Shown: piece after piece, positions 2,176 through 51,869 of the stretch
Layout of the letters: each line of letters opens with the position of its first letter
Numbering within the stretch: the first letter of the stretch is position 1
Origin: Patescibacteria group bacterium
Lineage (GTDB): Bacteria; Patescibacteriota; Minisyncoccia; Minisyncoccales; Staskawiczbacteraceae
Assembly (NCBI GenBank): GCA_018829965.1
Contig: JAHJTG010000008.1
Coordinates: 9,314-73,313, forward strand
DNA: 64,000 nucleotides
Direction of reading: 5' to 3'
Notes under the pieces: model-generated
Databases searched by the model: none
What the model saw: only the letters and a program-made list of their open reading frames with translations
What the model was told of the DNA's origin: nothing
Program-made: the position numbers and the translations under genes

Positions 2176-2793
2176 ATGTTTTCACAGTTAAAATCATTTT
2201 TAGAAAGAATTGACTACCACAGAGATCGATTGCTTTTTCCATTCATCAGAAAGTTTTGGCCTCGATATATCTGGCCGAATCATATAACAATTCTAAGGAT
2301 TATTATATCTGTAGTAATTGTTTTCTTGTTGATATTCGGCTTCCGAGATAGATTATGGCTGCTTTCACTCTTTATCATAGGCGCTCTATTAGATATGGTA
2401 GACGGTTCTGTTGCGAGAGCATTAAAAAGAGAAACTAAAATCGGGGCATTGTTAGACTCAATGGCTGACAGAATGTTGCTTTTACCAATTGGCGTTTTTA
2501 TTTTATTTAAAAATTATGTCTGGTTACTTCTATTTCTAATGATACCGGAAATTATTACAGGAATAATGATTCTATATTGCAGAACTAAGAATAAAATTAT
2601 TACAGCCACTATTTTTGGGAAAACAAAAATGGTTATTGAGTGTGTAGCTTTATCTGTAATAATTCTTTTTGATTTTCCGGATACTCCTTCCAGTTTTCCA
2701 ATAATATTGCTTTATTTTGCCGTTGCATTCGCTTTTCTGAATGTAGTTTTGAATATTAAAGTTCTAAAAAGTAAAGATGCTCAATTTTTATAA
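2176..2793 (+). CDS. CDP-alcohol phosphatidyltransferase family protein
   Basis: D-G-x2-A-R-x8-G-x3-D-x3-D signature ([27 protein letters not shown]); polytopic membrane protein. Confidence 0.85.
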
Positions 2794-4207
2794 CACTCTT
2801 ATAAGGAAAAAACAGGAGTTCAAACCCCTAAAAGACAAGGGGGTCGGAATATACTCTTGCGGACCGACGGTATATTGGTATCAACATATCGGAAATTTAA
2901 GGTCTTATATTTTTAGCGACATTCTGAAAAGAGTTTTGGAATATGACGGATATAAAACAAAGCATGTAATGAATATTACTGATGTCGGACATCTAACCTC
3001 TGATGCTGATTCAGGCGAAGATAAAATGGAAAAAGCAGCAACAAAAGAAGGAAAAAGTGCAAAAGAGATTTCCAATTATTACTGGAAAATATTCCGCGAT
3101 GATTTTAAGAAACTGAATATTATTGAGCCAGATATCTGGTGCAAAGCAACAGAACATATAAAGGAACAGGTTGATTTAATAGAAAAACTTGAAGAAAAAG
3201 GATTTACCTATAAAACAGCTGACGGAATATATTTTGATACTTCAAAGTTTAAAAACTATGGCCAATTAGCTAAAAAAAACATCGAGGGGATAGAGTCTGG
3301 AAAAAGAGTGAAAATGCGAGATAAAAAGAATCCAACTGATTTTGCCTTATGGAAGTTTTCTGAAAAGCCAGGGATAAGGCAACAAGAATGGAAAAGTCCA
3401 TGGGGAGTAGGATTCCCAGGTTGGCATATTGAATGCTCGGCAATGTCAATGAAATACTTGGGCGAAACCTTTGATATTCACACTGGCGGAGAAGACCATA
3501 TCTCAATACACCATACAAATGAAATCGCTCAATCAGAAGCTAGCACTGGCAAGAAGTTCGTTAACTTCTGGCTACATGGCGCTTTTCTAACCTTTAAAGG
3601 AGAAAAAGTAAGCAAAAGCAAAGGCGGTCTCTATACTATTTCAGGGCTTGAGGAAAAAGGGTTCAATCCCCTCGCCTATCGCTATCTATGTTTAACCGCG
3701 CATTACAGAAGTCCTTTAGGTTTTAACTTAGACAGTTTAAAGAGCGCGGAAAACGCTTACGATAGGTTAAAAAATATCGTTCAAGAGATTAAGAATGACA
3801 AAAAGATTCACCCCGTTAGAAGTCCGATGCGCTTACGCATCGGCAGCCGCCTTTGGCGACTTACTTCTAACGGGGTAAACGAAAAATATTTAAATGATTT
3901 TAAGAACGCAATCAATGACGATTTAGATATGCCAAAAGCAATAGCTATTTTATGGAATCTAATAAGAGATAAAAATGCTGTAGGAAAATTAGGAACAATT
4001 AAAGAAATGGATAAAGTTTTAGGTTTGGATTTGCTGAAAAAAGAAAAAAAAGAAATACCGGCAGCAATTAAGAAACTAGCGATAGAAAGGGAAAAAGCAA
4101 GAAAAAACAAAGATTGGCAGAAAGCTGACGAGTTGAGAAAACAAATTGAAAAATCAGGTTATTTAATAGAAGATACTGAAAACGGACCAAAATTAAGAAG
4201 AAAATAG
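2777..4207 (+). CDS. cysS: Cysteinyl-tRNA synthetase (carries an in-frame palindromic insert at 3810-3876)
   Basis: CGPTVY, HIGN (HIGH), WHIECS, KVSKS (KMSKS), C-terminal DALR-like helix bundle. Confidence 0.95.
3810..3876. repeat. Palindromic insert (family F, CCCCGTTAGAA termini) inside cysS
   Basis: accccgttagaagt...acttctaacggggt inverted termini enclose the hairpin ccgatgcgcttacgcatcgg. Translated as [23 protein letters not shown]. Confidence 0.8.
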
Positions 4208-4230
4208 AAATTAATAATTCACACTTTTTA

Positions 4231-4265
4231 CCCTTGCCGTCTATTGGCAAGGGTTTTTGTTTTTG
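4231..4265 (+). terminator. Rho-independent terminator after cysS
   Basis: cccttgcc-gtctat-tggcaaggg hairpin followed by tttttgttttt. Confidence 0.7.
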
Positions 4266-4288
4266 ATATAGTTGGTTATAGATATATT

Positions 4289-5650
4289 ATGGCAAAGCAA
4301 GAACTCCAAGAAAAACTTCCTCCCCAAAACATTGAAGCAGAACAAAGCCTGTTAGGCTGTTTGATGTTAGATAAAGACGCCATTATCAAAGTGTCTGATT
4401 TTACCAACGCAGACGACTTCTATAAAGACACTCATAAAGAAATATATCAAGCAATGCTAGAGCTCTACCGAAGAATGGAGCCGATCGACCTTTTATCTGT
4501 AACCAGCCGGCTCCGCGAGAAGGAAGGTTTGGAAAAAATTGGCGGGTCAAGTTATTTAACCTCTTTAATTAACGCTGTTCCAACGGCTACTCATGTTTTA
4601 AATTATGCAAAAATAGTCCGAGCAAAAAAGATTTTAAGAGATTTAATCGGAGCATCAGATGAAATAGGTTTAGCAGCTTTTGATGAAGCAGAGGATGTTG
4701 ATGTTTTATTGGATAAAGCGGAAAAAACAATATTTGGCATCGGGCAAAAATCATTAACACAAAATTTTATTGCGATAAAAGATATACTACCAGATACTTT
4801 TAATAGACTAGACGAACTTTCAAAACATAAAGGCGCTTTAAGGGGACTTCCAACCGGATTCCGCGATTTAGATAATAAGCTATCGGGCTTACAAAAATCA
4901 GACCTGATTATTTTAGCTGCCAGACCAGCTATGGGTAAAACTTCTTTAGCTTTAGATATTGCAAGACAGATAGCAACTAATCAGAAAGTTCCTGTCGGTA
5001 TATTCAGCTTAGAAATGTCTAAAGACCAGCTCGTAGACAGAGTGTTATCCGCCCAATCCGGCGTTGATTCTTGGAAATTAAGGTCGGGTAATCTTTCAGC
5101 TGATGGTCCCGATAATGATTTCACTCTGCTCCAAGAAGCAATGGGTCATTTATCAGAAGCTCCAATATATATTGACGATGCTGGTATGGTGAATATACTG
5201 CAAATGAGAGCAATGGCAAGACGCTTGCAGGCAGAAAAGGGTTTAGGATTACTAATTGTTGATTATCTCCAATTAATGGATTCGACTATTAGAAACTTTT
5301 CAGCCGTTCAGCAAGTAACTGAAATCTCAAAAGCATTGAAAGCTTTAGCGAAAGAATTAAATATTCCCGTCCTAGCAATATCCCAATTATCTAGAGCAGT
5401 TGAAGGTAGAACTCCGTCGATTCCAAGATTATCTGACCTTCGCGAAAGCGGAAGTTTAGAGCAAGATAGCGATGTAGTTTTATTTATTTATCGGGAAGAC
5501 AAATATATGGAAAATCCGGAAAAAAGAAATGTTGCCAAAATCATAATTGCAAAACACAGAAATGGCCCAGTCGGCGAAATTGAGCTATACTTTGACGAAA
5601 ACAGAACAACCTTTAGAAGTTTAGAAAAGGACGAATATGCTACATCATAA
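4289..5650 (+). CDS. dnaB: Replicative DNA helicase
   Basis: PPQNIEAEQSLLGCLML N-terminus, Walker A ARPAMGKTS, IVDYLQL, SQLSR, HRNGP. ATG at 4289 is preferred over the TTG at 4244, which lies in the terminator hairpin. Confidence 0.95.
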   Translation: MAKQELQEKLPPQNIEAEQSLLGCLMLDKDAIIKVSDFTNADDFYKDTHKEIYQAMLELYRRMEPIDLLSVTSRLREKEGLEKIGGSSYLTSLINAVPTATHVLNYAKIVRAKKILRDLIGASDEIGLAAFDEAEDVDVLLDKAEKTIFGIGQKSLTQNFIAIKDILPDTFNRLDELSKHKGALRGLPTGFRDLDNKLSGLQKSDLIILAARPAMGKTSLALDIARQIATNQKVPVGIFSLEMSKDQLVDRVLSAQSGVDSWKLRSGNLSADGPDNDFTLLQEAMGHLSEAPIYIDDAGMVNILQMRAMARRLQAEKGLGLLIVDYLQLMDSTIRNFSAVQQVTEISKALKALAKELNIPVLAISQLSRAVEGRTPSIPRLSDLRESGSLEQDSDVVLFIYREDKYMENPEKRNVAKIIIAKHRNGPVGEIELYFDENRTTFRSLEKDEYATS

Positions 5651-20129: not shown

Positions 20130-20194
20130 AAACTAAGTTTTCGTTTAATTATTTTACCCTGTTAGAGGTTTTATGTAAACAAAAAGAGCGCTAT

Positions 20195-20305
20195 TGTGGC
20201 AACTACCTACTTTCGCGACAAAATCACTATCATCGGCCTTAGAGTATTTCACTTCCGAGTTCGGAATGGGATCGGGTGGGACAACTCTAGTATAGTCGCC
20301 ACAGC
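20195..20305 (-). rRNA. rrf: 5S rRNA
   Basis: Reverse complement reads gcuguggcgacuauacuagaguugucccacccgaucccauuccgaacucggaagugaaauacucuaaggccgaugauagu..., the canonical 5S core. Confidence 0.9.
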
Positions 20306-20697
20306 AACGCTCTTTTTTAAACCCAGTTAAATAATTTTGCTTTTTCAAAATTAATGCAAAGCATTATTTAACGAGGTAAAGAATCAAAATAAAATAATGA
20401 ATAGCTAAAATCTGTATCTATCCTTATTCTTCCGCCTAAACTTTCTTGCGAAAATCTTGGCGGAGAAGCAAAGAATTTAACAATGATTTATTAGTACTTC
20501 TCGGCTGAATGGGTTGCCCCACTTACACCTGAAGCCTATCAACCTTGTCATCTTCAAGGAATCTAGGAGTTCTAATCTTGAGGTGGGTTTCGCGCTTAGA
20601 TGCTTTCAGCGCTTATCCCTTCCTAACTTAGCTACCCAGCAATGCTCCTGGCGGAACAACTGGTACACCAGAGGTTAGTCCAACCCGGTCCTCTCGT

Positions 20698-21461
20698 CAC
20701 ATAATCTTCTATCACTAGAAGTGTAGACTATATCTTCATCCCGCCTAGCGGGAGTCGGCGTATTATGATGGGTTTAAAGCCACCATCCTTCCTTAAAATA
20801 ATGATTTTAAGAAAAAGTCGTTACGGGGTCATATCTAAAATTTTTAATAATTCTTGCTTTGTTTTCTTTTTCTTGGCTATATAGTTATCCGATTGAATGG
20901 CTATAATATAATTTACTATCTTTTTTAATTCGTTTTTTGTTAAACAATTTTTCCTTTTCTTAGAAAAAAGACAAACAGCTTTATATAGTGCTTTCGCCTG
21001 CTTTTGTTTAAAACGAATAAAAGGTATTAAATCTTTTAGGATATTTTCTATTTGCTTGAATCCATTTATTCTTAATTCACTCATTCCGTCGTTTCTTTGA
21101 GAAAAATATCCTATACCAAGTTTTTTCTTTATCCAATGGAGTGGTTTTTCGTGACGACTATCTTGATAAAAACAGATAGTAGCCATTAAGCGCCAATTTG
21201 TTTTACCATCTTTGCGCTTCTTAATTTGAAGCATTAAGCTTCCGTCTCCATCGAGAAAACCTGCGATATAAGCTAAATTTATTTTAGATTGACTTCCCAC
21301 GGTATTATCTTAATAATTATAATTTCTGGTCCTCAAGTAAATTGTACCATAATTAATGGACCGATTGCAATTATGGTTATCAACGAACCAGATATATTAA
21401 GGTTTCACCGTTATTAGCCGAATTGTCATCGTGGATTACTCCACGAAGTAGCAAATTTCTT
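20698..21461 (-). mobile_element. Group I intron in the 23S sarcin-ricin loop
   Basis: Exons rejoin as CCCUAGU|ACGAGAGGACCGG. The intron follows U and ends in G. It contains AAUACCGUGGGAAG, CCCCGUAA.., and GAUAUAGUCU (S element). Confidence 0.85.
20821..21300 (-). CDS. LAGLIDADG homing endonuclease, single-motif (I-CreI-like, presumably homodimeric); GTG start
   Basis: LAYIAGFLDGDGSL near the N-terminus; 159 aa; lies wholly inside the intron. Confidence 0.9.
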   Translation of the reverse strand: MGSQSKINLAYIAGFLDGDGSLMLQIKKRKDGKTNWRLMATICFYQDSRHEKPLHWIKKKLGIGYFSQRNDGMSELRINGFKQIENILKDLIPFIRFKQKQAKALYKAVCLFSKKRKNCLTKNELKKIVNYIIAIQSDNYIAKKKKTKQELLKILDMTP

Positions 21462-21523
21462 ACTAGGGTCAGAGCCTCTCAAAACTCTACGATCGCGGTA
21501 GATAAGGACCAACCTGTCTCACG

Positions 21524-22214
21524 CATATTTGTCATTTATTACTAAATGTATGGACTATACCACTACCCAAATTAATTGGGTAATCGACGTTTTAGCCGCC
21601 GTTAGGCGACTCCGACCGATTAAGGTCAAGTCTCTACGGGGTCGATGTATACACCTTTCGATTCTTTGAATAATTTAATTCACGAAAAGTATCAATTAAT
21701 TTAGCAAGTTTATTAAAATCTTTCTGGCATTTAACTTTACTTTTTTGAACAATAATTTTTTTCAGGAGATTTATTTGAGCTTTCTTCATTAATACATACG
21801 GGCCAACGAGTCCGATAAATTTATTTATCCCCTCTTGGGTCCCAATAATATATTCGAGAATTCCATCTTTTCTAACCCTTAAATATCCTAAATTAATTAA
21901 AGCACAAACTTTAGCAAAATTATTTTGGTTTTTCTGTGATTGGAATAACACAATGTAATTTACAACTTGGAAACCATACTTATAAGTTTTGTTTGGTTTT
22001 AGTTGCGCATATACACTACCATCCCCATCAAGAAATCCAGCCAAATATGATCTTTGTGTTTGCGAAATTAATTTTTTCATACACGACTTCCCTCGGTATT
22101 ATCCTATCATACGACAGATTATAATGAAAGGACTTCACCGATATGAGTCGATTTATTCACTGTAATATTACTATTACAGGCCGCCTAGCTTGTTAACAGA
22201 TCAAGCTTTAGTCG
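21524..22214 (-). mobile_element. Group I intron in 23S domain V (after ~U2593, the I-CreI-type site)
   Basis: Exons rejoin as GGGUUCAAACCGU|CGUGAGACAGGUUGG. Core elements AAUACCGAGGGAAG, CCCCGUAGAGACUUGAC, GGUAUAGUCC. Confidence 0.85.
21634..22080 (-). CDS. LAGLIDADG homing endonuclease, I-CreI family
   Basis: SYLAGFLDGDGSVYAQLKPNKTYKYGFQV aligns by eye with I-CreI YLAGFVDGDGSIIAQIKPNQSYKFKHQL; 148 aa. Confidence 0.9.
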   Translation of the reverse strand: MKKLISQTQRSYLAGFLDGDGSVYAQLKPNKTYKYGFQVVNYIVLFQSQKNQNNFAKVCALINLGYLRVRKDGILEYIIGTQEGINKFIGLVGPYVLMKKAQINLLKKIIVQKSKVKCQKDFNKLAKLIDTFRELNYSKNRKVYTSTP

Positions 22215-22307
22215 ACGGTTTGAACCCAGCTCACGTAACACTTTAATTGGCGAACAGCCAAACCCTTGGGAGCGGCTTCACCCCCAGGATGTGTTGAGCC
22301 GACATCG

Positions 22308-22592
22308 CTGTCGGTAATTTTTCTCTCCTTACAGAGAGGTTCGGACTATATCTTCACCCTTTCTCAATAAGAAAGGGGCTGGCGTGTTAGCTCTCCAATT
22401 TTTTGGAGAACTCCGACTATTAAAAGTCAAGTCTCTACAGGGTTATAACCCAATCTTTTTAAGAATTGAGTTAAACTTCCCACGGTATTATCGTTTAGTT
22501 TTACTAATTTTACCATATGAACTAAGTACGATTCCACCGTTATAAGCCAGATTTTTGGTATAGCATTACTGCTATAGCACCCCGATTTGTTA
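22308..22592 (-). mobile_element. ORF-less group I intron in 23S domain V (after ~U2500) with a homing-endonuclease-gene relic
   Basis: Exons rejoin as GUUCGGCACCU|CGAUGUCGGCUC. Keeps AAUACCGUGGGAAG, CCUGUAGAGACUUGAC, GAUAUAGUCC. Only an 18-codon remnant (MGSLTQFLKRLGYNPVET*) lies between them. Confidence 0.8.
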
Positions 22593-23209
22593 AGGTGCCG
22601 AACAGAGCCGTCGCTATGGACGCTCGGGCTCTACCAGCCTGTTATCCCCGGAGTAGCTTTTGGTTGATGATCTTTCGCGGTTCTAATAACCACGATCGGT
22701 TCACTAAGTTCTGGTTTCCCAACTGCGCGACATATCCGTCTTGCAGTAAAGCCGGCATTTGGCTTTGCCCTATCGCTCCGATTTCCATCCGGAGCTAGCC
22801 GACCTTATAAACGCCTCCATTACCTTTTAGGAGGCAAGTGCCCCACTTAAACTGCCCATTAAACACTGTCTCCGCCTAAGGCGGATTAGAATCAGGGTTT
22901 TTAAAGGATGGTGTTTCATCGGCGACTCCACCCTGTCCGAAAACAAGGTTTCAAAGTCTCCCATCTACGCTACGCATTAAAAACCAAAACTCAATATCTA
23001 ACTACAGTAAAGCTTCCGGGGTCTTTCCGTCTAGCCGCGATTAACCGGCATCTTCACCGGTATTGCATTTTCACCGGGCTCCTCGTTGAGACAGTTCTCT
23101 AGTCGTTAAGCCATTCATGCGGGCCGGAACTTACCCGGCAAGGGATTACGCTACCTTTGGACGGTTATAGTTACCGCCGACGTTCACTGGTGCTTCAATC
23201 AATGAGCCC

Positions 23210-23320
23210 CACTCCGCTCCTTACTTCGTAAGAGCTTCGAAGGGGCAGGTATTCTTTTTTTCAGAATACTTGTCCTGCGTAGCTTTTTTTACGAAACAAA
23301 AAGCGAAGTAGGACCCTCAA
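23210..23320 (-). repeat. 23S hairpin insertion 1 (domain IV, ~E. coli 1860 region)
   Basis: ~110 extra nt relative to E. coli, with nested hairpins (caggtattc-ttttttt-cagaatacttg). Confidence 0.6.
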
Positions 23321-23427
23321 CTTTAACATTCCAGCACTGGTCAGGCTTCACCCCCTATACATCCTCTTACGAGTTAGCAGAGAGCTGTGTTTTTGATAAA
23401 CAGTCGCTAGAGATACGTTAGCTGCGT

Positions 23428-23572
23428 CCCACCGCACCTCGCTATGCTCGGTACTACCGCGGATTAACACGGATTTTAACTGATTAACACGGATAAAATA
23501 TCCGTATGAATCCAGTCGTATCCGCATGTATCCGTGGTACCAAACGCAGTGAGGTACGGTAGGAAGGCCATA
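23428..23572 (-). repeat. 23S hairpin insertion 2 (variable helix ~E. coli 1730)
   Basis: Outer arms cctcgctatgctcgg / ccaaacgcagtgagg enclose CGGAT-rich modules (family I, also at 38245-38300). Confidence 0.7.
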
Positions 23573-24712
23573 TTGCGAACTTACGGCCGCTTTTTTGCCG
23601 AGTTCCTTAACGAGGAATCACCCGTTCATCTTGGCACACTTACGCCGACCCACCTGTGTCGGTTTACGGTACGGTTCCCATTTTTTTAACCCTACGAGCT
23701 TTTCTAGACAACGCGCTCATCCGAATCGCCAGTGCCGAAGCACCAACTTTTCTCATTCCTTAGATTACTCCTAAGAACAAGAACATAAATCCAATAATTT
23801 GCTCGGACTACTGTGTTGTGTCACTCTTCAGAAAAAAATGGAAGGGACGGAATATTAACCGTCTAACCATTAGGTACGCCTTTCGGCTTCCCCTTAGGAC
23901 CGCCTAACCCTTGGCTGATTGCCATTGCCAAGGAACCCTTGGGTTTTCGATGTCCCGGTATTTCACCGAGATTGCGGTTACTCATGCCAACATTCTCTCT
24001 TCTTAACGCTCCACCAGACCTCACAGTCTAGCTTCGCAGCGATAAGAATGCTCTCCTACCACGCATAAAAACCTGAGTTTCTATGCATCCATATCTTCGG
24101 TATTAAGCTTTAGTCCCGATGAATCTTCGGCGCACTTTGCCTATATAGGACAGTGAGTTGTTACACACTCTTTAAAAGATAGCTACCTCTAAGCTAACTT
24201 CCTGCCTGTAAAGGGCAAAATACTTCCTTAATCTACACTTAGCTTAATTTTGGGACCTTAGATGATGATCTGGACTGTTCTCCTTACGACCATGGAGCTT
24301 AGCCCCCACAGTCTAACTGCCTTTTTGACGATGCTGGTATTCGGAGTTTAATTAGAATATCTGAGCGAAGCCCAAGAAATTCTATTTAGTGCTCTACCCC
24401 CAGCACCTAAACAAAAGACGCTAGCCCTAAAGCTATGTCGGAGAGAACCAGCTATTACCAAGCTCGATTAGCTTATCACTTCTTACCACAGGTCATCCCA
24501 GAGTATTGCACGGCTCAAGGGTTCGGACCTCCCCCGCTCTTTCGAGAGGGTTCATCCTGCCCATGGCAAGCTCGCCTGGCTTCGGGTCTCAACCACTCAG
24601 CTTAATTGTTTGCGCTATTAACGCTCGCTTTCGCTATGCCTCCACCCCGTAAGGGTTTAGACTAGCTGAGTAACTGAACTCGTTGGCTCGTTCTGCAAAA
24701 AGCACGCCATCA

Positions 24713-24898
24713 CCAGCCACATCTCGCTGCGCTCGATGTGTCTGGAAACCCTAAATCCTAAATCCGAAATCCTAAACAATAACTAAAATCCAAAATCAAA
24801 AACTTATTTTAAATTTGAAATTTAGAATTTGGAATTTGTTTAGAGTTTCGTGTTTAGTGCTTAGAATTTCCGCATCGAACAAAGTGAGATGCGGCCAG
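24713..24898 (-). repeat. 23S hairpin insertion 3 (helix 25 region, ~E. coli 540)
   Basis: Outer arms catctcgctgcgctcgatg / catcgaacaaagtgagatg enclose inverted heptamer arrays of family C. Confidence 0.7.
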
Positions 24899-25286
24899 CT
24901 CTGACTCGTTGTAAGCAAATGGTTTCAGGTTCTATTTCATCGGGGTCGCCCCCCTACTTTTCACCTTTCCCTCACGGTACTGGTTCACTATCGGTAATAT
25001 TGAGTATTTAGCCTTGGCCGTATAGTTCGGCCTGATTCCTGCCAGGTTATCATTCCCGACAGTACTTAAGTAAAATAGCAAGGAGCGTAAAGTCGTTTTC
25101 GTCTACAGGACTATTACCTTCTATGGTCACCCTTTCCAGGGTTATTTGACTAACGAAAAATTTATTCTTGCAGAGCAAAAATAAATTTACACTTTACCAA
25201 AATGTTCTCCCTCGGATAGAATCCAGCACTCTTTAACGTTTCAAAAAGTACTGGATGCTCCCGACGCTAAATCCTTGCAACCCCAA

Positions 25287-25425
25287 TCGCTCGCGCCTCG
25301 CTATGCTCGTCGCTTCGCTCTCCTACCAATTACGAATTTTTTCGAATTACGAATATTCGTAATTAGTTTAAATTGGTAATTCGTAGGAAGAGTAAGTGCC
25401 GAACGCAGTAAGGCACGAACGAATG
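25287..25425 (-). repeat. 23S hairpin insertion 4 (domain I, ~E. coli 270 region)
   Basis: Outer arms gcctcgctatgctcg / cgaacgcagtaaggc enclose ACGAAT modules of family B. Confidence 0.7.
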
Positions 25426-25471
25426 GTTTGGGCTCTTCCCTTTTCGCTCGCCACTACTAAGGGAATAACTG

Positions 25472-25747
25472 GTCCTACATCTCACAAATTCCGCTAAATT
25501 TAGAAACGAAATAATGCGCTAAATTCAAGACGCGATGACGAAACGCATAAGTGAAACGATGCGTTGAGGAAGAGCCTCGCAGAAGTTAGCCATTATTTCG
25601 CTTCCCTTTCGGGCGGGCGAATTCTGGACATATTCTTTGTTGCTCGTCGCTCACGTATCGCGTTGCTTATACGCTGTCGCTCCTCGCGTCGCGAATCTGT
25701 CGCAGAATTCGCTTCGCTAAATTAGTGCAATTTGTGAGATGCAGGAC
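25472..25747 (-). repeat. 23S insertion 5: 276-nt element with 19-bp terminal inverted repeats (domain I, ~E. coli 215)
   Basis: gtcctacatctcacaaatt ... aatttgtgagatgcaggac (18/19 complementary), with an internal gcgaattctg/cagaattcgc hairpin. No ORF and no group I core. Confidence 0.75.
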
Positions 25748-26333
25748 ATTTGTTCTCTTTTCCTCTGGGTACTGTGATGTTTCGCTTCCCCAGGTCTACC
25801 CCTAACCTTGCGGTCAGGTAATCCCGTTCTGCGGGATTGGGTTGCCCCATTCAGAAACCTCCGGATCAAAGGTTGCTAGCCACCTCCCCGAAGCTTATCG
25901 CAGGCACGCCACGTCTTTCATCGCCTCAATATTCCAAGGCATCCACCATTTGCCTATAAAATTATTTTCTTTGCGTAAGTTTATTCAACAATATAAATAC
26001 TGCTGAATGAATAGATACAGATTTTAGATATCTATTACTATTATATTTTTAGATGATTCTTTACTCTGTTAAAAAAAGACCCCTGTCTAAAGTTTAACAG
26101 AGTGGCCTAATTATATCTTTTTAAAAAAAGCAAGATTATAATTAGGGTTGTATTTTCAAAGTTCTTGATAAATATACTATTCTTAAAAAATTAAAAACCG
26201 CCTAGTTAAAGCGGTCCATCAGACATATACCCGCCTGCATCGCCTGTGGCGAAAGCCACTGCGGGCAGGCAAAAACTCGGAGTTTAACCGCTTCTTTTTC
26301 TAAAAATGGTTTTAATATTTATCATGTAAGGTT

Positions 26334-26362
26334 ATATTATTCTATAAATAAAAACGTGTCAA
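26334..26362 (-). promoter_or_regulatory. Candidate sigma70-type promoter for the 23S-5S unit
   Basis: Minus strand reads TTGACA-17 nt-TAATAT, ~360 nt upstream of the 23S 5' end and upstream of the processing stem. Confidence 0.45.
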
Positions 26363-26499
26363 GCCTTTCACCCTTTAAAAGAAGGTGTAGGGCACAGACC
26401 ATTGTCCTCCTGACGCGAAACTGGATCAATAATTTATGATATTATATACAAAATCTGTCACACAATATTGGGAGACCCGACCTCCCAATTAAATTAATT

Positions 26500-26533
26500 G
26501 AAAACAAAGCCCGGTCGCCTTAGGCGACCGGGC
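26500..26533 (-). terminator. Rho-independent terminator after the 26560-27240 gene
   Basis: gcccggtcgcc-taa-ggcgaccgggc hairpin followed (minus strand) by uuuguuuu. Confidence 0.7.
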
Positions 26534-26559
26534 TAATGTTTTCAATACTGAAAATTTAT

Positions 26560-27240
26560 CTATTTAATCTTTCTCTTTAAGTTCTCAATTGCTTGAGCTG
26601 CAGCATCTTTTCCACCTAAACCGAAAGCCAACATAACCGAACCGGCAATAGCGGCAACAATACCATAAACTATACCCTTGTATAGAATCTGGACTAAATC
26701 TGATTTTGGTAATAATTGATCTAAGATCATGAATATTAAGAAAATCCAAATTGTCCATCTTACGATAGAGGCTGCTAAATGAGCGTAACCGATTTTCATT
26801 TTCTCAACTGTTGCTCTTACTAACTTTTCTACGATATCAGCAATAACTACACCGACTACAAAAATTAAAACAGCGATAATGATGTTTGGGATATAGTTTA
26901 AGATATCCCTTAGAAGTTCTCCAAATTTAGTTAAATTTAGAATATCAACTGTTAATAATAATGTGACGATTACAAATATCCATTTAACGATAGCTCCAAT
27001 AAAAGCAGACGGATCCACTTTTATATCAGCTTTCTCAATGGCTTTCTGCCAACCTTCTTTTTCAAAAAGACGGTTGAATTTTAGTCCCTTCAAAAGTTCG
27101 GTTATAAATCTGCCGATTCCGACAGAGATGATATAGCCGATAACGAAGACAATTATTGCTATTATAAGTTGAGGAAGAAACGAAACCAATTCTTTAAGAA
27201 ATGGTTGTATAATTGTTACGTACCATTCTGGTGTTACCAT
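26560..27240 (-). CDS. Polytopic membrane protein (repeated TM-helix type, possibly mechanosensitive-channel-associated)
   Basis: ~6 TM helices with internal repeats; no catalytic motif. Confidence 0.5.
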   Translation of the reverse strand: MVTPEWYVTIIQPFLKELVSFLPQLIIAIIVFVIGYIISVGIGRFITELLKGLKFNRLFEKEGWQKAIEKADIKVDPSAFIGAIVKWIFVIVTLLLTVDILNLTKFGELLRDILNYIPNIIIAVLIFVVGVVIADIVEKLVRATVEKMKIGYAHLAASIVRWTIWIFLIFMILDQLLPKSDLVQILYKGIVYGIVAAIAGSVMLAFGLGGKDAAAQAIENLKRKIK

Positions 27241-27411
27241 ATTTATTTTAGGTTTAATTATCGATTTATTAATAAATAATTCGACCTTTATAAATTAGGC
27301 TTCTTGTCTGCCTGCGGTAGATCTCCCAAAGGGAGACAACCAGCCTAATCGTTAAACATTATTTTATTATGTGCTTATCTGCCTAAGAATCAACCCCTTA
27401 TGTGGATAATT

Positions 27412-28500
27412 CTATCCATGCTTTATCTCAATCACATCTCCGTCTTGAATGATATATTCCTTTCCTTCTGTTCTTATTAATCCCCTCTCTCTTGCCTTAG
27501 AAAAACCGCCGGCTTCAATCAAATCTTTCCAATTAATAACCTCGGCTTTAACAAACGTCTTTTCAAAATCGCTATGGATTACTCCTCCTGCTTGCGGAGC
27601 CATCTCCCCTCTTTTTATTGTCCAAGCACGCGTCTCATCTGTCCCAGTTGTCAAAAAAGTAATTAGACTTAACAGCTCGTAAGATTTTTTAACTAAAATA
27701 TCTGTTTCTGACTCTGGAGGAAATCCCAAAGAGATTCTTTCTTCTTTTAAGAAACCTGCTGTTTCAAATTCTGAAGCGATGTCTACTATTAAATACGGCC
27801 AACTTGTCTCGCCAGAATTGGCTGGGTTATTCTTTTTAAAAACCTCTAAAGTATTTTGATCCACCTCCTCATCTTTTCCGTTTAAAAGATACAGCCTTGG
27901 TTTTAATGTTAATAATTGAAAACTATCCAAAATTTTCTTCTCTTCATCTGTAAAGCTTTGCTCAACTAATATTTTTTCTTCAGTTAAAAATTCTTTTGCT
28001 TTTTTTAATACTTCCATTTCCTTAATCGCCTCCTTCCTATTAGCCCTTACATCACCCTCCAAGCCATGTATTCTTTTCGTAATAGTATCTAAATCTTTTA
28101 AAATTAATTCTACGTCTAAGATCCCTTTATCTCTTAATGGACTTATTGATTCTTGCGTGTTAATAATATCGGAATTAGAAAAAGCGCGAAGGATATATAT
28201 GATTGCATCTGTTTCACGAATATTTGCTAAAAACTTGTTTCCCAAGCCTTCGCCTTCGCTCGCCCCTTTTACCAAGCCGGCGATATCAACAAACTCAATG
28301 GTTGTATAAATCTTCTTTGCAGAACTAGTTAATTCAGCTAATTTATCAACTCTTTCGTCTGGAACCAAAACAACCCCTACATTAGGGTCAATTGTACAAA
28401 AAGGATAATTAGCAATATCCACTTCCTTTTTGGTTAATGTTTTAAATAGAGTGGACTTACCTACATTCGGTAATCCTACAATGCCTATACTAAGTGCCAT
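27412..28500 (-). CDS. ychF: Ribosome-binding ATPase YchF
   Basis: G1 GLPNVGKST, NYPFCTIDPN, DIAGLV.GAS.G.GLGN.FL, C-terminal TGS-like domain. Confidence 0.95.
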   Translation of the reverse strand: MALSIGIVGLPNVGKSTLFKTLTKKEVDIANYPFCTIDPNVGVVLVPDERVDKLAELTSSAKKIYTTIEFVDIAGLVKGASEGEGLGNKFLANIRETDAIIYILRAFSNSDIINTQESISPLRDKGILDVELILKDLDTITKRIHGLEGDVRANRKEAIKEMEVLKKAKEFLTEEKILVEQSFTDEEKKILDSFQLLTLKPRLYLLNGKDEEVDQNTLEVFKKNNPANSGETSWPYLIVDIASEFETAGFLKEERISLGFPPESETDILVKKSYELLSLITFLTTGTDETRAWTIKRGEMAPQAGGVIHSDFEKTFVKAEVINWKDLIEAGGFSKARERGLIRTEGKEYIIQDGDVIEIKHG

Positions 28501-28529
28501 TTATAAATTTTTAAAATTATTTTTTTATA

Positions 28530-28883
28530 TTAAAACCTATAAATATTGCCCTCCGATGGAGTTTCAATATTAGTATTTGCTAAAACTTTTTTTATTCTCT
28601 CTGCTTCATTTTCAATTATTTCCCCGTCGTATTCTCCACTATGACTATGCGCTCCACTATTTTCATATGAAGCAAACTTCTGATCTAAATGAAGATTGAA
28701 GATAAACTCGTTATGGTCCTCATCTTTTTTTATAAACACATGGAATCTCGGGTAACCATATCCCCTGCTTAAATCCTTAACAAGGCTTTCTTCGCCGTTC
28801 TCGCTTTTTCTGCCAATCTTATATCCAATCTTCTTCGCCATATTTACAATAGTTTCGTTAGTGTTTTTAACTATAAATTTCAT
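28530..28883 (-). CDS. Hypothetical protein (117 aa; start moved to Met66 of the tracked ORF)
   Basis: The ORF-track N-terminus reads through tRNA-Ala and repeat DNA. MKFIVKN... begins 8 nt downstream of the tRNA. Confidence 0.5.
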   Translation of the reverse strand: MKFIVKNTNETIVNMAKKIGYKIGRKSENGEESLVKDLSRGYGYPRFHVFIKKDEDHNEFIFNLHLDQKFASYENSGAHSHSGEYDGEIIENEAERIKKVLANTNIETPSEGNIYRF

Positions 28884-28891
28884 ATTATTTA

Positions 28892-28962
28892 TGGACCCTG
28901 CGAGAATCGAACTCGCATCTCCTCGTTGCAAACGAGGTGTGCTACCACTATACCAAGGGCCC
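28892..28962 (-). tRNA. tRNA-Ala (anticodon UGC)
   Basis: Acceptor GGGCCCU/AGGGUCC with the G3:U70 identity pair; anticodon stem CCUCG/CGAGG with loop UUUGCAA; T arm GCGAG-UUCGAUU-CUCGC. Confidence 0.85.
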
Positions 28963-28965
28963 ACC

Positions 28966-29060
28966 AAAGCTATCGAGAATCTTCGATTTCTTTCAGAAAT
29001 CGGGACAAATGTCCCGATGGCTGTTGCCATCGCGGATGCTCGATTTTGCTCGGCAAAATC
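28966..29060. repeat. Family A module cluster (GTCCCGAT / TCGAGnATCnTCGA words)
   Basis: atcgagaatcttcgat, tttctttcagaaatcgggac, gtcccgatggctgttgccatcg, cgattttgctcggcaaaatcg: concatenated small hairpins. Confidence 0.75.
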
Positions 29061-29092
29061 GGCAAGGTGTTCTACCACTAAACTAAAGCCCC
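29061..29092 (-). pseudogene. Orphan tRNA 5' half (acceptor strand, U8, D arm, start of anticodon stem)
   Basis: GGGGCUU-UA-GUUU-AGUGGUA-GAAC-A-CCUUG then runs straight into family A repeats. No matching 3' half (CAAGG... AAGCCCC) before tRNA-Ala. Confidence 0.5.
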
Positions 29093-29093
29093 C

Positions 29094-29423
29094 CTAATTT
29101 ATCCCCCAGAATTTTATTATTTGGACATCATCTAACCCCCAAATTCTCATTAGAATAAAATCCTTGAAATCGCTTATAATTATACCCATACTCAAAAAAA
29201 TCAAAACGTATCCAACATATTTTCTGCTTTTTTTAAAAAACAAATAAGATAAACTGATAAATAACAATAACAACCCAAATATCCAATGATGCGGAATCCA
29301 TATTATCTGCCCCCCAATGATATGCCCTATTCTCCCGATAGCATATCCCATAAACACTGCGAAGGTATATATAAAATATTTTATAGACATTATTGCTCTT
29401 AATAATATCTTACCTTTTTCCAA
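29094..29423 (-). CDS. Small membrane protein
   Basis: Three predicted TM helices; 109 aa. Confidence 0.5.
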   Translation of the reverse strand: MEKGKILLRAIMSIKYFIYTFAVFMGYAIGRIGHIIGGQIIWIPHHWIFGLLLLFISLSYLFFKKSRKYVGYVLIFLSMGIIISDFKDFILMRIWGLDDVQIIKFWGIN

Positions 29424-29483
29424 TAGTTTTTCAAGCCAGCAGGCGCAGGATTGCCAAGCACTAATCTACGGATAGTGCTCGGC

Positions 29484-29512
29484 TAAAACAAAAAACCGCA
29501 TTTCACGGTTTT
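29484..29512 (-). terminator. Rho-independent terminator downstream of the 16S gene
   Basis: aaccg-ugaaau-gcgguu hairpin followed by uuuuuguuuu on the minus strand. Confidence 0.6.
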
Positions 29513-29698
29513 TTGTTTTAGTTTCTTAAAGCTGTTTCGAATATCCGATTTTGACGATTTCGTACAGTAGCAAGCTGTATGAAACATTACTTCGGTAAAC
29601 GTTTTAACTTGAAATCCAAATTTAAGACTTCAAATTAAGTCGACAAAAAAATATAAAAAAATTGATCCACGACCAGGTTCCCCTAGCCGTGCCTTGTT

Positions 29699-30477
29699 CA
29701 TGCTATTCCCCTATATCGCTATAAGGCATGGACTATATCATCATCCTTTCACAAAATATTTTTGACTTTACTGGATGGTAAGAATTTACAATTTTAGCAA
29801 ATCTCTCGTGATGTTTAGTAGAAACAAATATTCTCCAATAATCAGGGTCAACTTTTTTACTCGGATTATGGATTTTTCCAGTTTCTATCTTTAAACTTTT
29901 GAGAAGTAACTTTAATTGCTTGATTTTGCTTAAATCCTTTTGGACTAACTGAATATAAAATCTGTCTTTTGTATGAGGAACGCCACCTTCGGCGTCAAAA
30001 AATCCTTTTACATAAAACAATTTTTCATAATAGTTATCCAAATTTATAGGATTAAATTTGAAATCTAAGTCTTTACAAAGTGTCTCTAAAACATACATAT
30101 TTCTATCCTTTCCCTCTTTGTAAATCCATGATTTGCAATTAATTTTACCTAGCAAAATTTGTAAATTTTCCAACCACTGCTTATTTTTCTGGGAGAATCT
30201 AATTCTCTTTCCTTTGTTTAAAGAGGCATCATGAATCGCTCCATTTAAATAAGCTATAATCTCATATTTTGTGGTAGGAGTTCGGCGTGTAGTCTCTGAG
30301 GGGTCAATTCTAATTTTATTAGAACGACTTCCCTGCTGATTGTCTGCACTAGAAACATTTTCACTCATATTATCTTATTATAATATGAGTAGTCCTAGAT
30401 TCACAGATGTTCCAGCATACAGCCAACTTTTTCTCTAAGGGTTACCCCTATGAGGTCGCAACATGCAGATTGCACTG
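29699..30477 (-). mobile_element. Group I intron in 16S after U1498 (decoding centre, inside the 1492R primer site)
   Basis: Exons rejoin as GGGGCUAAGUCGU|AACAAGGCACGG. ACAAUCAGCAGGGAAG and CCCCUCAGAGACUAC lie 5' of most of the ORF; GAUAUAGUCC lies 3' of it. Confidence 0.85.
29733..30368 (-). CDS. LAGLIDADG homing endonuclease (double-motif)
   Basis: IIAYLNGAIHDAS and VKGFFDAEGGV motifs. The tracked N-terminus reads through intron core elements, so the true start is uncertain. Confidence 0.8.
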   Translation of the reverse strand: MSENVSSADNQQGSRSNKIRIDPSETTRRTPTTKYEIIAYLNGAIHDASLNKGKRIRFSQKNKQWLENLQILLGKINCKSWIYKEGKDRNMYVLETLCKDLDFKFNPINLDNYYEKLFYVKGFFDAEGGVPHTKDRFYIQLVQKDLSKIKQLKLLLKSLKIETGKIHNPSKKVDPDYWRIFVSTKHHERFAKIVNSYHPVKSKIFCERMMI

Positions 30478-30893
30478 ACGACTTAGCCCCTCTTATTAAG
30501 CCCAGCGTAGGATCCCGTAAACGGGACACTTCGGCTGTTCCTAACTCGCTTGGCTTGACGGGCGGTGAGTACAAGACTCAGGAACATATTCATCGCCGCA
30601 TAGCTGATCGGCGATTACTAGCGATTCCAACTTCATGAGGGCGGGTTTCAGCCCTCAATCCGAACTAAGACCGATTTTGGTGGGATTTGCTTCACCTTGC
30701 GGTTTTGCGTCCCATTGTCTCGGCCATTGTACCACGTGTGCGGCCCAAGTCATCAAAGGGCCATGCTGATTTGGCGTCATCCTCGCCTTCCTCCCAGTTG
30801 TCCCGGGCAGTCCCCTATGACATATAAAACATAGGGCAAGGGTTGCGCTCGTTACCCGAATTAACGGTACGTCTCAAGACACGAGCTGACGAC

Positions 30894-31713
30894 CATATTG
30901 ATCTATAATTTCTTATAGTATGGACTATACCATCTTCCATCCGCCTGAGGCGGATTAGGAGACCAGCGTTTAATGATAGGTTATATCATTAAGTTTTCTC
31001 GCCTTTAGAGAAAACTAAGTCTCTACGGGGTATAAAAACTAATTTTTGTAATTTTATCGAATAATTATAAATTTTTTCTAAAAATTCTCTTGCCTGGTAT
31101 CGCGAGATATAAAGGCAAAATGTCTTTGCTGTTTTGTAGTAATAAATTTTTGTATTACTAATTCCTATCCTTAAAAGAAGACTTTTATCAATTTCTGCTT
31201 CATTTTTATTTCCATATACTATCCTGCAATCATTTCTAAAGTTCTTATCGATTGAACCGTCTCCATCAAACCTTCCTGCAAAATATGCATTAATTAAATT
31301 ATCTTTTTCTAATTTAATTAAATTATTTCGTGCCTCTCTAAATTCTCTCAGGAATGGACGGCTATTAACAAAAATATGATTTCTATTAAATTTTATCCTA
31401 TCTTCAGAAAAAAACTTCAATAGAAAATCTTTAAACTTGGCTATCAAAGCAGGGTCTACATTACTTAGACCAATCGAACTTGACCACCAATAACTATCTG
31501 CACACCAAAGTCCTAAGATATAAGAATCTTCTTCTCTAGAGAAAAAATTACAAAAATTAGTTTTTATACTTCCCACGGTATTGCCATTAATTATTATATT
31601 TTAACATAATAATTAGAAGGTTTCACCGTTATGAGCTGGTTTTTTACCGTATTAAAATAAATTAGTACGGGGCATTTCACTAAAAATTACTTTTTAGTGG
31701 GTCGTTATAACAC
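30894..31713 (-). mobile_element. Group I intron in 16S helix 34 (after ~U1060)
   Basis: Exons rejoin as GGUGCUGCAUGGUU|GUCGUCAGCUCGUG. Core elements AAUACCGUGGGAAG, CCCCGUAGAGACUUAG, GGUAUAGUCC. Confidence 0.85.
30989..31576 (-). CDS. LAGLIDADG homing endonuclease (double-motif); GTG start
   Basis: YILGLWCADSYWW and AYFAGRFDGDGSI motifs; 195 aa. Confidence 0.85.
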   Translation of the reverse strand: MGSIKTNFCNFFSREEDSYILGLWCADSYWWSSSIGLSNVDPALIAKFKDFLLKFFSEDRIKFNRNHIFVNSRPFLREFREARNNLIKLEKDNLINAYFAGRFDGDGSIDKNFRNDCRIVYGNKNEAEIDKSLLLRIGISNTKIYYYKTAKTFCLYISRYQAREFLEKIYNYSIKLQKLVFIPRRDLVFSKGEKT

Positions 31714-51730: not shown

Positions 51731-51869
51731 ACCTTGTTAGAAGTCCTTGAAGAAAAAATTTAATTATAAATTTTTTCTTTGGCTAATAAATAAATTATTT
51801 AGTAAAAAGACATTTCGCTCCATTAAGATTGTCTGTTTTAATGCGCCAGACTTCTAGCGTGGCATATAT

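Follow-up and report, generated by a model that had tools for sequence, protein, structure and literature searches.

A translated palindrome in cysS belongs to a widespread family of in-frame hairpin elements that share their ends with small GIY-YIG nuclease elements

In-frame palindromes of Rickettsia have been on record since 2000, and to our knowledge nobody has shown what moves them. These Rickettsia palindromic elements (RPEs) are ~100-150 bp in length, Rickettsia-specific and described without an identified mobilizing enzyme (Ogata et al. 2000, summarised in PMC10969869). A second related system is that of the Ssn enzymes, single-domain GIY-YIG proteins of ~94 aa whose genes are flanked by hairpin repeats (Chenal et al. 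2025, PMC11893778). The Ssn enzymes bind these repeats in single-stranded DNA and cut upstream of them, and the authors likened the gene-repeat arrangement to an insertion sequence; their report mentions neither target duplications nor in-frame insertions, and Patescibacteria do not feature in it (PMC11893778). The locus described here links the two subjects, since translated hairpins in essential genes and minimal GIY-YIG nuclease elements are connected by one family of terminal arms.

The locus lies in cysS, within a 64-kb stretch of DNA that was analyzed as a whole (the window). The original prediction described a palindrome with perfect arms around an inner hairpin, of ~60% GC in an AT-rich gene and translated as part of cysS, and took it for a member of a family of in-frame mobile palindromes. 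The features of this copy are as follows.

2777-4207, plus strand: host gene cysS (CysRS, 476 aa), from the list of open reading frames; its homologues are annotated as cysteine--tRNA ligase
3807-3810, plus strand: left flank TTCA, decayed copy of the 4-bp target-site duplication, with 2 differences from TAAA
3810-3823, plus strand: left terminal arm ACCCCGTTAGAAGT, translated as (H)PVRS
3811-3875, plus strand: 65-bp hairpin element running from CCCC to GGGG, read as non-autonomous, member of a 65-nt subfamily
3824-3843, plus strand: inner hairpin B, CCGATGCG-CTTA-CGCATCGG, with stem halves at 3824-3831 and 3836-3843
3844-3862, plus strand: inner hairpin A, CAGCCGCC-TTT-GGCGACTT, with compensatory changes in the stem between copies
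3863-3876, plus strand: right terminal arm ACTTCTAACGGGGT, translated as TSNG(V)
3876-3879, plus strand: right flank TAAA, intact copy of the 4-bp target-site duplication

As predicted, the arms ACCCCGTTAGAAGT and ACTTCTAACGGGGT are perfect 14-nt inverted repeats; extended to 3807-3879, they match over 17 nt at 94%. The GC content of the palindrome is 58.2% versus 34.8% in the remainder of cysS, close to the earlier estimate. Its predicted fold is very stable both as RNA (-40.8 kcal/mol, z=-7.1) and as DNA (-28.7 kcal/mol, z=-8.7). The sequence of hairpin B is conserved across 53 metagenome stretches. Hairpin A is a second inner hairpin (paired region 3845-3861) that had gone unremarked; in cysS it carries one C/A mismatch relative to the family consensus CAGACGCC..GGCGTCTG. 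A search of Rfam at the gathering threshold gave no match at the palindrome, and permissive E-values yielded chance hairpins (miRNA precursors, CopA), all far under their cut-offs. Together with a single copy of the 4-bp duplication, the 65-bp element amounts to 69 bp, or 23 codons, and the segment does encode 23 residues in frame. The two flanks are unequal (TTCA versus TAAA), which indicates that the insertion is old.

The insert in the CysRS of the window comprises exactly 23 residues, preceded by a conserved DDKKI and followed by NKKYL; the homologues of the protein contain PF01406 and PF09334. Alignment of CysRS orthologues (69-80% identity) revealed an empty site in 22 of 23, and no orthologue carried an equivalent insert encoded without a palindrome; the lone orthologue with an insert at the site (P0042) has an unrelated one. 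In the closest relatives the empty site reads A-TAAA-C/T, which is compatible with the target of the family, and is set in the codons AAA ATA AAC (P0002) or AAA ATA AAT (P0003). The target would thus have been a YNNR tetranucleotide, probably TAAA or TTAA, within the Ile-Asn codons of CysRS, of which 4 bp would have been duplicated. In the AlphaFold model, residues 344-364 form a coil with pLDDT <50 flanked by two helices, so that the insert was probably received by a predicted unstructured linker that leads from helix 318-337 to helix 369-380. Because the 69 bases are whole codons, contain no in-frame stop and fall in this predicted linker, the insertion could be retained, and for the same reasons the insert is expected to be translated as a 23-residue loop. 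The same cysS sequence was independently assembled from run SRR6514730. No presence/absence polymorphism was found within one species, the sole other contig with this cysS being identical.

The cysS arm is not alone in the window. With up to 2 mismatches, its 14-mer occurs 7 times compared to 0.27 expected, and three paired copies of the family are present in all. The features outside cysS are listed below.

20157-20167, plus strand: degenerate solo arm CCCTGTTAGAG, adjoining the 5S rRNA gene
51732-51862, plus strand: third, decayed family member of 131 bp, CCTTGTTAGAAGT...ACTTCTAGCGTGG, intergenic, with a perfect duplication CATA/CATA
56294-56422, minus strand: second family member of 129 bp, in which both the arms and the duplication (minus-strand TTTA) are perfect
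59681-59950, minus strand: pseudogene of a small single-domain GIY-YIG nuclease (PF01541, E=9e-17)
63131-63141, plus strand: solo arm CCCCGTTAGAA, upstream of the start of a 515-aa ORF (61570-63117, minus strand)

The terminal word of the cysS palindrome had been said to recur at two intergenic places, and both words are real (63128-63141 and 56412-56425); the second has a partner arm (56293-56306) that is not intergenic but falls within the 5' part of a pilin gene, which makes the locus a complete second element. The pilin gene (55490-56341, minus strand) takes both its start codon and its leader from this element, one arm of which encodes LTG immediately ahead of the prepilin cleavage site G|FTLVEL. 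For the solo arm at 63131-63141, upstream of a putative FtsZ-like gene, no partner was found. The partner arm at 56293-56306, the decayed copy at 51732-51862 and the degenerate arm at 20157 had all escaped earlier notice. The GIY-YIG pseudogene is interrupted by an internal stop after EEHNK and is 43% identical to the arm-flanked nucleases described below; no recognizable family arms were found beside it.

Beyond the window, searches with the arm and with the inner hairpin recovered copies by the hundred at unrelated loci, where target-site duplications and nested insertions were seen, and the wide nucleotide search thereby bears out the family that had been proposed. Its defining arms are CCCCGTTAGAA/TTCTAACGGGG, in extended form CCCCGTTAGAA(R)(Y), and the 11-nt core of the arm is conserved over 142 paired copies. 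More than 120 family loci were located in GTDB genomes whose records are labelled with at least 8 phyla, these labels being those of the MAG records, in which some bins are possibly wrong. The elements measure 32-170 bp, with arms of 11-14 bp and extremely varied interiors. A perfect 4-nt direct repeat flanks 69 of 120 copies, compared to 7.4 in permutations (maximum 17); the signal is confined to a repeat width of 4, and the consensus of the target is g-YNNR-c. Some copies form arrays or are nested in one another, the nested ones with duplications of their own. Among 28 aligned copies, 96% of the cells pair and 6 base pairs exhibit compensatory changes, which could stem from intrastrand repair or hairpin gene conversion rather than from selection. 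In viral contigs the element was encountered just 3 times and the nuclease had no relative, and phages are therefore no obvious vector. Literature searches with the arm sequence and its sub-words returned unrelated primers only, searches by keyword for MITEs or in-frame palindromes of CPR, Planctomycetes or Omnitrophica gave nothing relevant, and a broad survey of MITEs (PMC11602168) mentions none of these three taxa and no GIY-YIG protein.

The length of the elements is adapted to reading frames. In 84 of 120 copies, the element plus its duplication is a multiple of three (p=2.6e-16), and at least 34 copies are read through within long ORFs. Ten host ORFs submitted to a Pfam search include SecA, DNA polymerase III alpha, UvrA, CarB, LigA, DNA polymerase I, a Mur ligase and a class II aminoacyl-tRNA synthetase, such that the essential genes secA, dnaE, uvrA, ligA and polA are among those read through. 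For the 65-nt subfamily, 39 distinct sites were counted, of which 36 are multiples of three and 19 are inside long ORFs, and near-identical copies are located in unrelated genes and organisms. The peptide of the cysS insert is also found, nearly unchanged, as an insert in further long ORFs at unrelated loci, and the peptides of the subfamily recur in both orientations, with one 22-residue type for each. Each arm contains one stop, TAG on the left and TAA on the right. When element plus duplication is a multiple of three, both stops share a frame, which leaves two of the three frames open in either orientation, and the resulting peptides are of the form PVR...SNG or PLE...LTG. The members of the family are thus built for harmlessness in genes.

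The same arms also bound larger elements of 266-290 bp, in which the sole gene codes for an 86-aa single-domain GIY-YIG nuclease. PF01541 covers residues 1-68 of this protein (E=3e-16), with no second domain above the cut-off. Arm-bounded GIY-YIG ORFs were observed at three loci (L152, L127 and L121), and seven further distinct loci all display the same order, namely an arm, 6-10 nt, a start codon, the GIY-YIG ORF and the second arm. Four of the nuclease loci, L127 among them, have a perfect TGAA/TGAA duplication, and the stop codon of the nuclease falls within the target duplication. The nuclease elements are positioned on host start codons, and the 14.7-kb contig of L152 contains additional family copies besides its nuclease element. 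The best 120 of 2508 homologues are 73-85% identical to the nuclease and mostly exactly 86 aa long. Most of 20 retrieved sequences end in ...RFL[SA]LTG, which is the right arm in translation, and 94-aa forms start with M-x-PVRE, which is the left arm. Since the ORF ends in the right arm and starts 6-10 nt from the left one, gene and arms appear to be a co-evolving unit, as opposed to a passenger in a foreign element. The best relative of solved structure is the UPF0213 protein BH0048 (PDB 1ZG2, E=1e-8). Among proteins of cultured organisms, those closest to the nuclease are YazA-like (35-44% identity), and a search of plasmid proteins gave YazA/UPF0213-like relatives only (26-44% identity). 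In the 64-kb window there is no intact arm-matched nuclease, the diverged and armless pseudogene being the only relative, and none of the loci from Planctomycetota or Omnitrophota revealed a nuclease with family arms.

The palindrome of cysS is thus, very probably, a non-autonomous foldback element of the MITE type that was inserted in frame, and we infer from the common ends that it was mobilized by the nuclease in trans. The 86-aa protein would act on gene-less elements by recognizing their arms once the element has folded, as a Y-shaped hairpin, in single-stranded DNA; this recognition would start mobilization, and ligation and repair by the host would complete the move. We know of no transposition chemistry for GIY-YIG nucleases. 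They hydrolyze DNA without a covalent intermediate, which leaves the joining of strands and the origin of the 4-bp duplication unexplained by the proposed scheme. More tentatively, the arms and the 86-aa GIY-YIG gene may together represent an unrecognized class of autonomous transposons of ~280 bp, whose gene-less derivatives reside in essential genes.

The family might instead be moved by a conventional DDE transposase (IS5-, IS701- or IS1380/piggyBac-like) that has so far eluded detection, with the GIY-YIG gene as a passenger or as a selfish gene that adopted the ends; we consider this unlikely. Terminal inverted repeats combined with a 4-bp duplication are classically a mark of DDE transposases, and the symmetric g-YNNR-c target is equally typical of their transposition. 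The ends of piggyBac, TTAA-CCCTAGAAAG, are similar to the family ends TNNA-CCCCGTTAGAAA, and IS1380 combines CC ends with 4-5-bp duplications; a 4-bp duplication and CC(C) ends are what is found here. The highly varied interiors would also be expected if the ends alone matter. Against a DDE enzyme, no such transposase gene was found between family arms within ~1.3 Mb around the copies, and the same flanking DNA holds no arm-bounded, duplication-matched element of >700 bp, one coincidence aside: among arm pairs 0.7-5 kb apart, the only matching duplication belongs to a 3.9-kb span over two separate elements. A 1.2-kb arm pair in L146, considered as a candidate autonomous element, was rejected, as the ORF between the arms is an ordinary one of the host and the flanking sequences do not match. 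Clustering of 884 ORFs near the copies revealed no recurring partner protein, the commonest neighbor appearing at 7 of 120 loci, and the GIY-YIG frame is itself tied to both arms, as befits a co-evolving unit. An origin by insertion, whichever enzyme drives it, is at odds with the improbable view that the hairpin mainly serves the host, either as a site bound or cut by an Ssn-type nuclease to control the uptake or recombination of transforming single-stranded DNA, in the manner of the NTS repeats of Neisseria, or as a regulatory or stabilizing structure in the cysS mRNA. Ssn/NTS interactions do modulate natural transformation in N. meningitidis, and only 2% of NTS repeats are in genes, compared to about half of the 65-nt subfamily (PMC11893778). 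The stability of the structure as RNA and as DNA and the type IV pilin-like protein encoded in the window would suit such a role; yet all but one of the cysS orthologues lack the insert, that of the remaining one is unrelated, and copies at unrelated gene sites, with duplicated targets and nesting, reflect insertion and not gene-specific regulation. A secondary, domesticated role for the hairpin may nevertheless exist.

Two further readings are of much lower probability. Perfect 14-bp inverted repeats around a 39-bp core, itself a multiple of three, would befit a segment that a site-specific recombinase inverts, thereby recoding or silencing CysRS, and family repeats also flank the promoter/leader region of the pilin gene, a classic target of phase variation. 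We regard inversion as very improbable, since the flipped core would bring an in-frame TAA (AAG TCG CCA AAG GCG GCT GCC GAT GCG TAA) into an essential gene, direct 4-nt flanking repeats are not a product of inversion and no recombinase recurs beside the copies; moreover, 39 bp is far under the spacing required by known invertases. That the loop is specific to the lineage and its palindrome coincidental, or that the palindrome is an artefact of assembly, is hardly credible: inserts do occur in or near the same loop in other CysRS orthologues, but the fold z-scores of -7 to -9, the excess of arms in the window, the near-identical 65-nt copies elsewhere and the independent assembly of an identical sequence all oppose it. 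Several known identities were also rejected. The GTT and AAC boxes are of opposite polarity to those of an integron attC site; neither a DNA uptake sequence nor a protein operator explains the flanking direct repeats; the three-way junction lacks the unpaired conserved core of a hammerhead or other small ribozyme; and translational bypassing does not apply to an insert that is an open reading frame.

If the nuclease is the mobilizing enzyme, it would constitute a new enzymatic class for DNA transposition and define a very small autonomous element. No described insertion sequence that we know of is as small as such a transposon of ~280 bp would be; its only enzyme would be a hairpin-recognizing GIY-YIG protein, in place of a DDE, HUH, tyrosine or serine recombinase, and it would borrow the ribosome-binding site and ATG of the host gene, with the ATGA overlap restoring the host ATG. 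A means by which RPE-like in-frame palindromes move would also be suggested. The movement of in-frame palindromes and the role of Ssn-type nucleases outside Neisseria thereby become questions for the bench, for which the materials are a protein of 86 residues and an oligonucleotide of 65 nt. The family likewise bears on annotation, as its elements add PVR...SNG loops of 17-28 residues to housekeeping proteins of uncultured phyla and create or replace the leaders of pilin genes.

Comparison with the RPEs reveals a common mode of insertion. In both cases short palindromes are found in frame in unrelated and often essential genes, are translated as extra surface peptides, and occur in multiple copies in reduced genomes. 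Unlike the RPEs, the present family ranges from 32 to 170 bp with 11-14-bp arms, is accompanied by a 4-bp YNNR duplication, extends to genomes labelled with at least 8 phyla and has ends in common with nuclease elements; the likeness thus concerns the mode of insertion, in hosts other than Rickettsia. The Ssn/SRM system resembles the nuclease elements in that a gene for a single-domain GIY-YIG protein of ~86-94 aa is bracketed by a hairpin repeat of which many copies are scattered over the genome. In the Ssn case a complete ~28-nt hairpin stands on each side of the gene, whereas here the gene is enclosed by the two halves of one inverted repeat, so that the whole element forms one hairpin. The published SRM consensus matched none of 237 elements on either strand and nothing in the window, the Neisseria NTS serving as positive control; in addition, the target duplications that are clear in the present family are unmentioned in the Ssn paper (PMC11893778).

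The REP/REPIN-RAYT and IS200/IS605 systems are also alike, in that they spread hairpin repeats by means of a small enzyme that recognizes folded single-stranded DNA, and the single-copy gene of this enzyme is flanked by the repeats. Their enzymes are of the HUH/Y1 type, the target is not duplicated and the repeats lie outside genes, as opposed to the 4-bp duplication, GIY-YIG enzyme and frequent intragenic insertion observed here, and we therefore do not assign the family to them. The bacterial MITEs derived from DDE insertion sequences (Correia elements, Nezha) share with the present elements their terminal inverted repeats, target-site duplication and small size, and they too are non-coding, present in many copies, nested and occasionally fused in frame with host genes. 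The ends of known MITEs are also those of a DDE transposase gene, and a known MITE is usually confined to one genus or family; in the present family, GIY-YIG is the only gene found between the ends, conservation of the arms extends across phyla and lengths divisible by three are systematic. The cysS element and its family nonetheless combine several of the properties by which a MITE is defined, namely inverted repeats, a duplication of fixed length (decayed in the cysS copy), a small size with many copies, and empty sites in relatives.

The palindrome translated within cysS has perfect inverted arms, ACCCCGTTAGAAGT (3810-3823) and ACTTCTAACGGGGT (3863-3876), which enclose the inner hairpin of the original prediction, CCGATGCG-CTTA-CGCATCGG (hairpin B, 3824-3843), together with another small hairpin, at 3845-3861 (hairpin A). 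The strand folds as a Y-shaped three-way junction (-40.8 kcal/mol, z=-7.1 for the RNA fold; -28.7 kcal/mol, z=-8.7 for the DNA fold). The predicted composition (about 60% GC) and translation were also confirmed: the segment has 58% GC versus 35% in the rest of cysS and in the window, and the 476-codon cysS ORF (2777-4207) is open across it, with 23 residues encoded. The source contig belongs to the Patescibacteria (CPR), has 35% GC and carries large insertions within its rRNA genes. At up to 2 mismatches, the window contains 7 occurrences of the arm 14-mer versus 0.27 expected.

The rRNA operon (20194-34663, minus strand) contains very large insertions, typical of CPR bacteria: ORFs separate the two segments in which the 16S gene is matched (30456-31890 and 33974-34663), and the 23S gene extends over 3.8 kb. 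The window also holds strong palindromes unrelated to the cysS-element family, which may represent the other palindrome families of the original prediction:
40130-40201, perfect 19-nt arms separated by 34 nt, at the 3' end of ORF 40195-40884
57716-57768, 25-nt arms with a 3-nt gap, in an intergenic spacer
54749-54784 and 55208-55243, a twice-repeated palindrome, TCCCGACTTTGTCGAGGATCC, inside ORF 53972-55345

Most of the listed CysRS homologues are 452-456 residues long. Alignment of 24 sequences places exactly 23 extra residues in the window protein between the conserved DDKKI and NKKYL; 22 of the 23 other proteins have no residues there, the exception being homologue P0042, with an unrelated 37-residue insert at the same position. 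The empty site reads AAA ATA AAC and AAA ATA AAT in the two closest relatives. An assembly artefact was ruled out as the source of the segment, since a second assembly from an independent run contains a contig identical to the one carrying it. In the AlphaFold model (pTM 0.78), residues 344-364 are a low-confidence coil between helices 318-337 and 369-380, that is, in the linker from the catalytic body to the C-terminal helical domain, a place expected to tolerate an added loop. The copy is flanked by TTCA (left) and TAAA (right); the latter is the tetranucleotide of the orthologous empty sites, and the former differs from it at 2 positions. Alternatively, both flanks could derive from TTAA, one substitution from each. 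Under either origin the insertion is old: the duplication has drifted, yet the 14-bp arms are still perfect.

Different inserts occur in or beside the same linker in P0042 (locus L201), P0043 (L202), P0113, P0046, P0014/P0025 and P0076. The insert DNA of P0042 and P0043 is AT-rich and unrelated to the cysS-element family, with several short palindromes, e.g., TCAAGAATC-AAA-GATTCTTGA and AGAAAATC-TAAA-GATTTTCT. P0014 and P0025 have a 25-residue insert in common, but elsewhere in CysRS. Palindromic elements seem to have landed in this linker repeatedly.

A scan of one genome per GTDB species with CCCCGTTAGAA, 28-58 unspecified bases and TTCTAACGGGG returned at least 120 loci. Those listed are labeled as many Patescibacteria classes, Omnitrophota, Pirellulales, Phycisphaerae, Desulfobacterota, Nitrospirota, Elusimicrobiota, KSB1, Riflebacteria, Ratteibacteria and others, although individual phylum labels may be wrong, because all records are MAGs or single-cell genomes. 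The interiors vary widely, and the ends behave as transposon ends. The 4 nt left of CCCC recur as a direct repeat right of GGGG in 69 of the 120 listed copies, versus 7.4 (maximum 17) when flanks are permuted; flank identity per position is 0.74-0.83 at repeat width 4 and at background at all other widths. Duplications are of YNNR tetranucleotides, mostly TNNA, with G enriched directly before and C directly after. Nesting also occurs, with a separate duplication for each copy, as do dense arrays, and the arms covary (e.g., TCCC...GGGA, GTTACAA...TTGTAAC and AGAGA...TCTCT). In MAG JBAZQK01, the same 78-nt element lies on two contigs in opposite orientation (L024 153-230 and L075 210-287), with similar but not identical flanks, which reflect either paralogous sites or strain variants.

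The family is also built to keep genes open. In 84 of the 120 listed copies, the element and 4 further nucleotides add up to a multiple of three (p=2.6e-16). In such copies the sole left-arm stop (TAG) and the sole right-arm stop (TAA) share one frame, which leaves two frames open whichever way the element lies, as follows directly from the sequence. At least 34 copies lie within long ORFs and are read through; of 20 examined, 18 read x-PVR(S/N)...SNG(V/A)-x and 2 PLE...LTG. Pfam assignments for ten host ORFs include SecA, DNA polymerase III alpha, UvrA, carbamoyl-phosphate synthase, NAD-dependent ligase, DNA polymerase I, Mur ligase, class II aminoacyl-tRNA synthetase and sulfatase. The cysS element is an insertion, one of a family with terminal repeats, 4-bp YNNR duplications and nested copies; together with the in-frame copies and the empty CysRS site, these features bear out the proposed family of in-frame mobile palindromes.

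In seven cases, from records labeled as four phyla, the arm adjoins a prepilin cleavage site, ...(L/F)LTG|FT(L/I)(V/I)E:
window 55490-56426 (minus strand), one site
L052 and L076, one site each
L093 and L117, two sites each
The consensus target g-TTTA-c is contained in the Gly-Phe-Thr codons of this site, GGN TTT ACN; an element landing there recreates G|F and comes to lie in the cleaved leader. The start codon and leader (MGNKEIKKEKNKLLTG) of the window pilin lie inside a 129-bp element.

Scanning metagenomes for hairpin B yielded 53 stretches, representing 39 distinct insertion sites of the 65-nt cysS subfamily (window included). Its consensus, CCCCGTTAGAAGT-(CCGATGCG nnnn CGCATCGG)-(CAGACGCC nnn GGCGTCTG)-AC-TTCTAACGGGG, folds as a three-way junction almost without unpaired junction bases. 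Of the 39 copies, 36 are multiples of three, the duplication is perfect in 18, and 19 fall within long open reading frames. A 22-residue peptide, nearly the one translated in CysRS, recurs at several other unrelated loci, and copies in the opposite orientation encode another recurring 22-residue peptide. In an alignment of 28 copies, 96% of cells pair, with compensatory changes in 6 base pairs, mostly in hairpin A and the outermost arm positions; hairpin B is uninformative here, being fixed by the search pattern. CPR contigs bearing the subfamily carry a family member every ~3-5 kb.

The ends of these hairpins are also those of minimal nuclease-encoding elements. Each of three longer arm pairs has a small GIY-YIG ORF between its arms (PF01541, E about 1e-16):
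L152, 277-nt arm pair, intact ORF
L127, 266-nt arm pair, decayed ORF, duplication TGAA/TGAA
L121, variant arms CCCTGTTAAATA/TATTTAACAGGG, ORF directly upstream of the cysS encoding CysRS homologue P0002

The L152 protein, used as query, had 2508 matches, the best 120 of which are 73-85% identical and mostly exactly 86 residues long. In most of 20 retrieved nucleases the C-terminus, ...NRLKRFL[SA]LTG, is the right arm (CTA ACG GGG), and 94-residue forms start with M-x-PVRE, the left arm translated from an ATG further upstream. Seven further distinct loci share the layout A-TGAA, TCCCGTTAGAG, 6-10 nt, start codon, GIY-YIG ORF, TCTCTAACGGGA, TGA-A. The TGAA/TGAA duplication is found at four nuclease loci, including L127, and contains the nuclease stop codon. 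At five loci (L190, L191, L194, L198 and L180) the element is placed precisely on the host start codon: the downstream host gene begins at an ATGA overlap with the nuclease stop TGA, its ATGAAR start recreated by the duplication plus the terminal A of the arm, and from the upstream ATG copy the nuclease gains an in-frame MNPVRE extension. The sole in-frame ATG upstream of the L190 ORF is that of the left flank, and the nuclease would therefore use the former host start site. The elements have no space for a promoter and, judged from this arrangement, seem to depend on host start codons.

A small GIY-YIG pseudogene in the window (59681-59950, minus strand; stop after EEHNK) is 43% identical to the arm-flanked nucleases; clear family arms were not found in its flanks. 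Locus L074 contains two more small GIY-YIG genes (4075-4308 and 4488-4736) within other inverted repeats, CCCCGCACCTATTAAGCAC/GTGCTTGATAGGTGCGGGG and CTCTTCACCCC/GGGGTGAAGAG, which suggests several arm dialects, each with a different nuclease subfamily.

We infer that the GIY-YIG protein, like Ssn enzymes, would recognize the arms once the strand is folded and may start mobilization of the gene-less hairpins as well as of its own element. A hydrolytic nuclease as starter leaves rejoining and the 4-bp duplication unexplained. The main rival, still plausible, is mobilization by a DDE transposase, but no such enzyme appeared in ~1.3 Mb of DNA flanking family copies.

For the proposed GIY-YIG enzyme, the closest parallel is Ssn, a single-domain GIY-YIG protein of ~94 residues (CDD family cd10448) that binds a single-stranded DNA hairpin repeat and cuts upstream (PMC11893778). 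Its genes are flanked by their own hairpin repeat (Chenal et al. 2025, PMC11893778) and are present where repeats number in the hundreds, as in Rickettsia, Wolbachia and Neisseria; the authors liken the arrangement to an insertion sequence, and Patescibacteria, target duplications and in-frame insertions go unmentioned (PMC11893778). The degenerate repeat consensus of that paper matches 0 of 237 elements. The best solved relative of the arm-flanked nuclease is UPF0213 protein BH0048 (1ZG2). GIY-YIG genes have been reported in non-intron insertions of CPR rRNA genes, with no apparent spread by homing (PMC11270868), and RPEs are the textbook case of in-frame palindromes (PMC10969869). Our literature searches for the family and for its arms found no description. 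In its behavior the cysS element resembles MITEs and RPEs, and in its associated enzyme the family resembles Ssn; the element is thus a variant of MITE-like/RPE-like elements with an Ssn-like associated enzyme, distinguished by the unusually wide distribution of its family and by a specific, testable candidate for the mobilizing enzyme.
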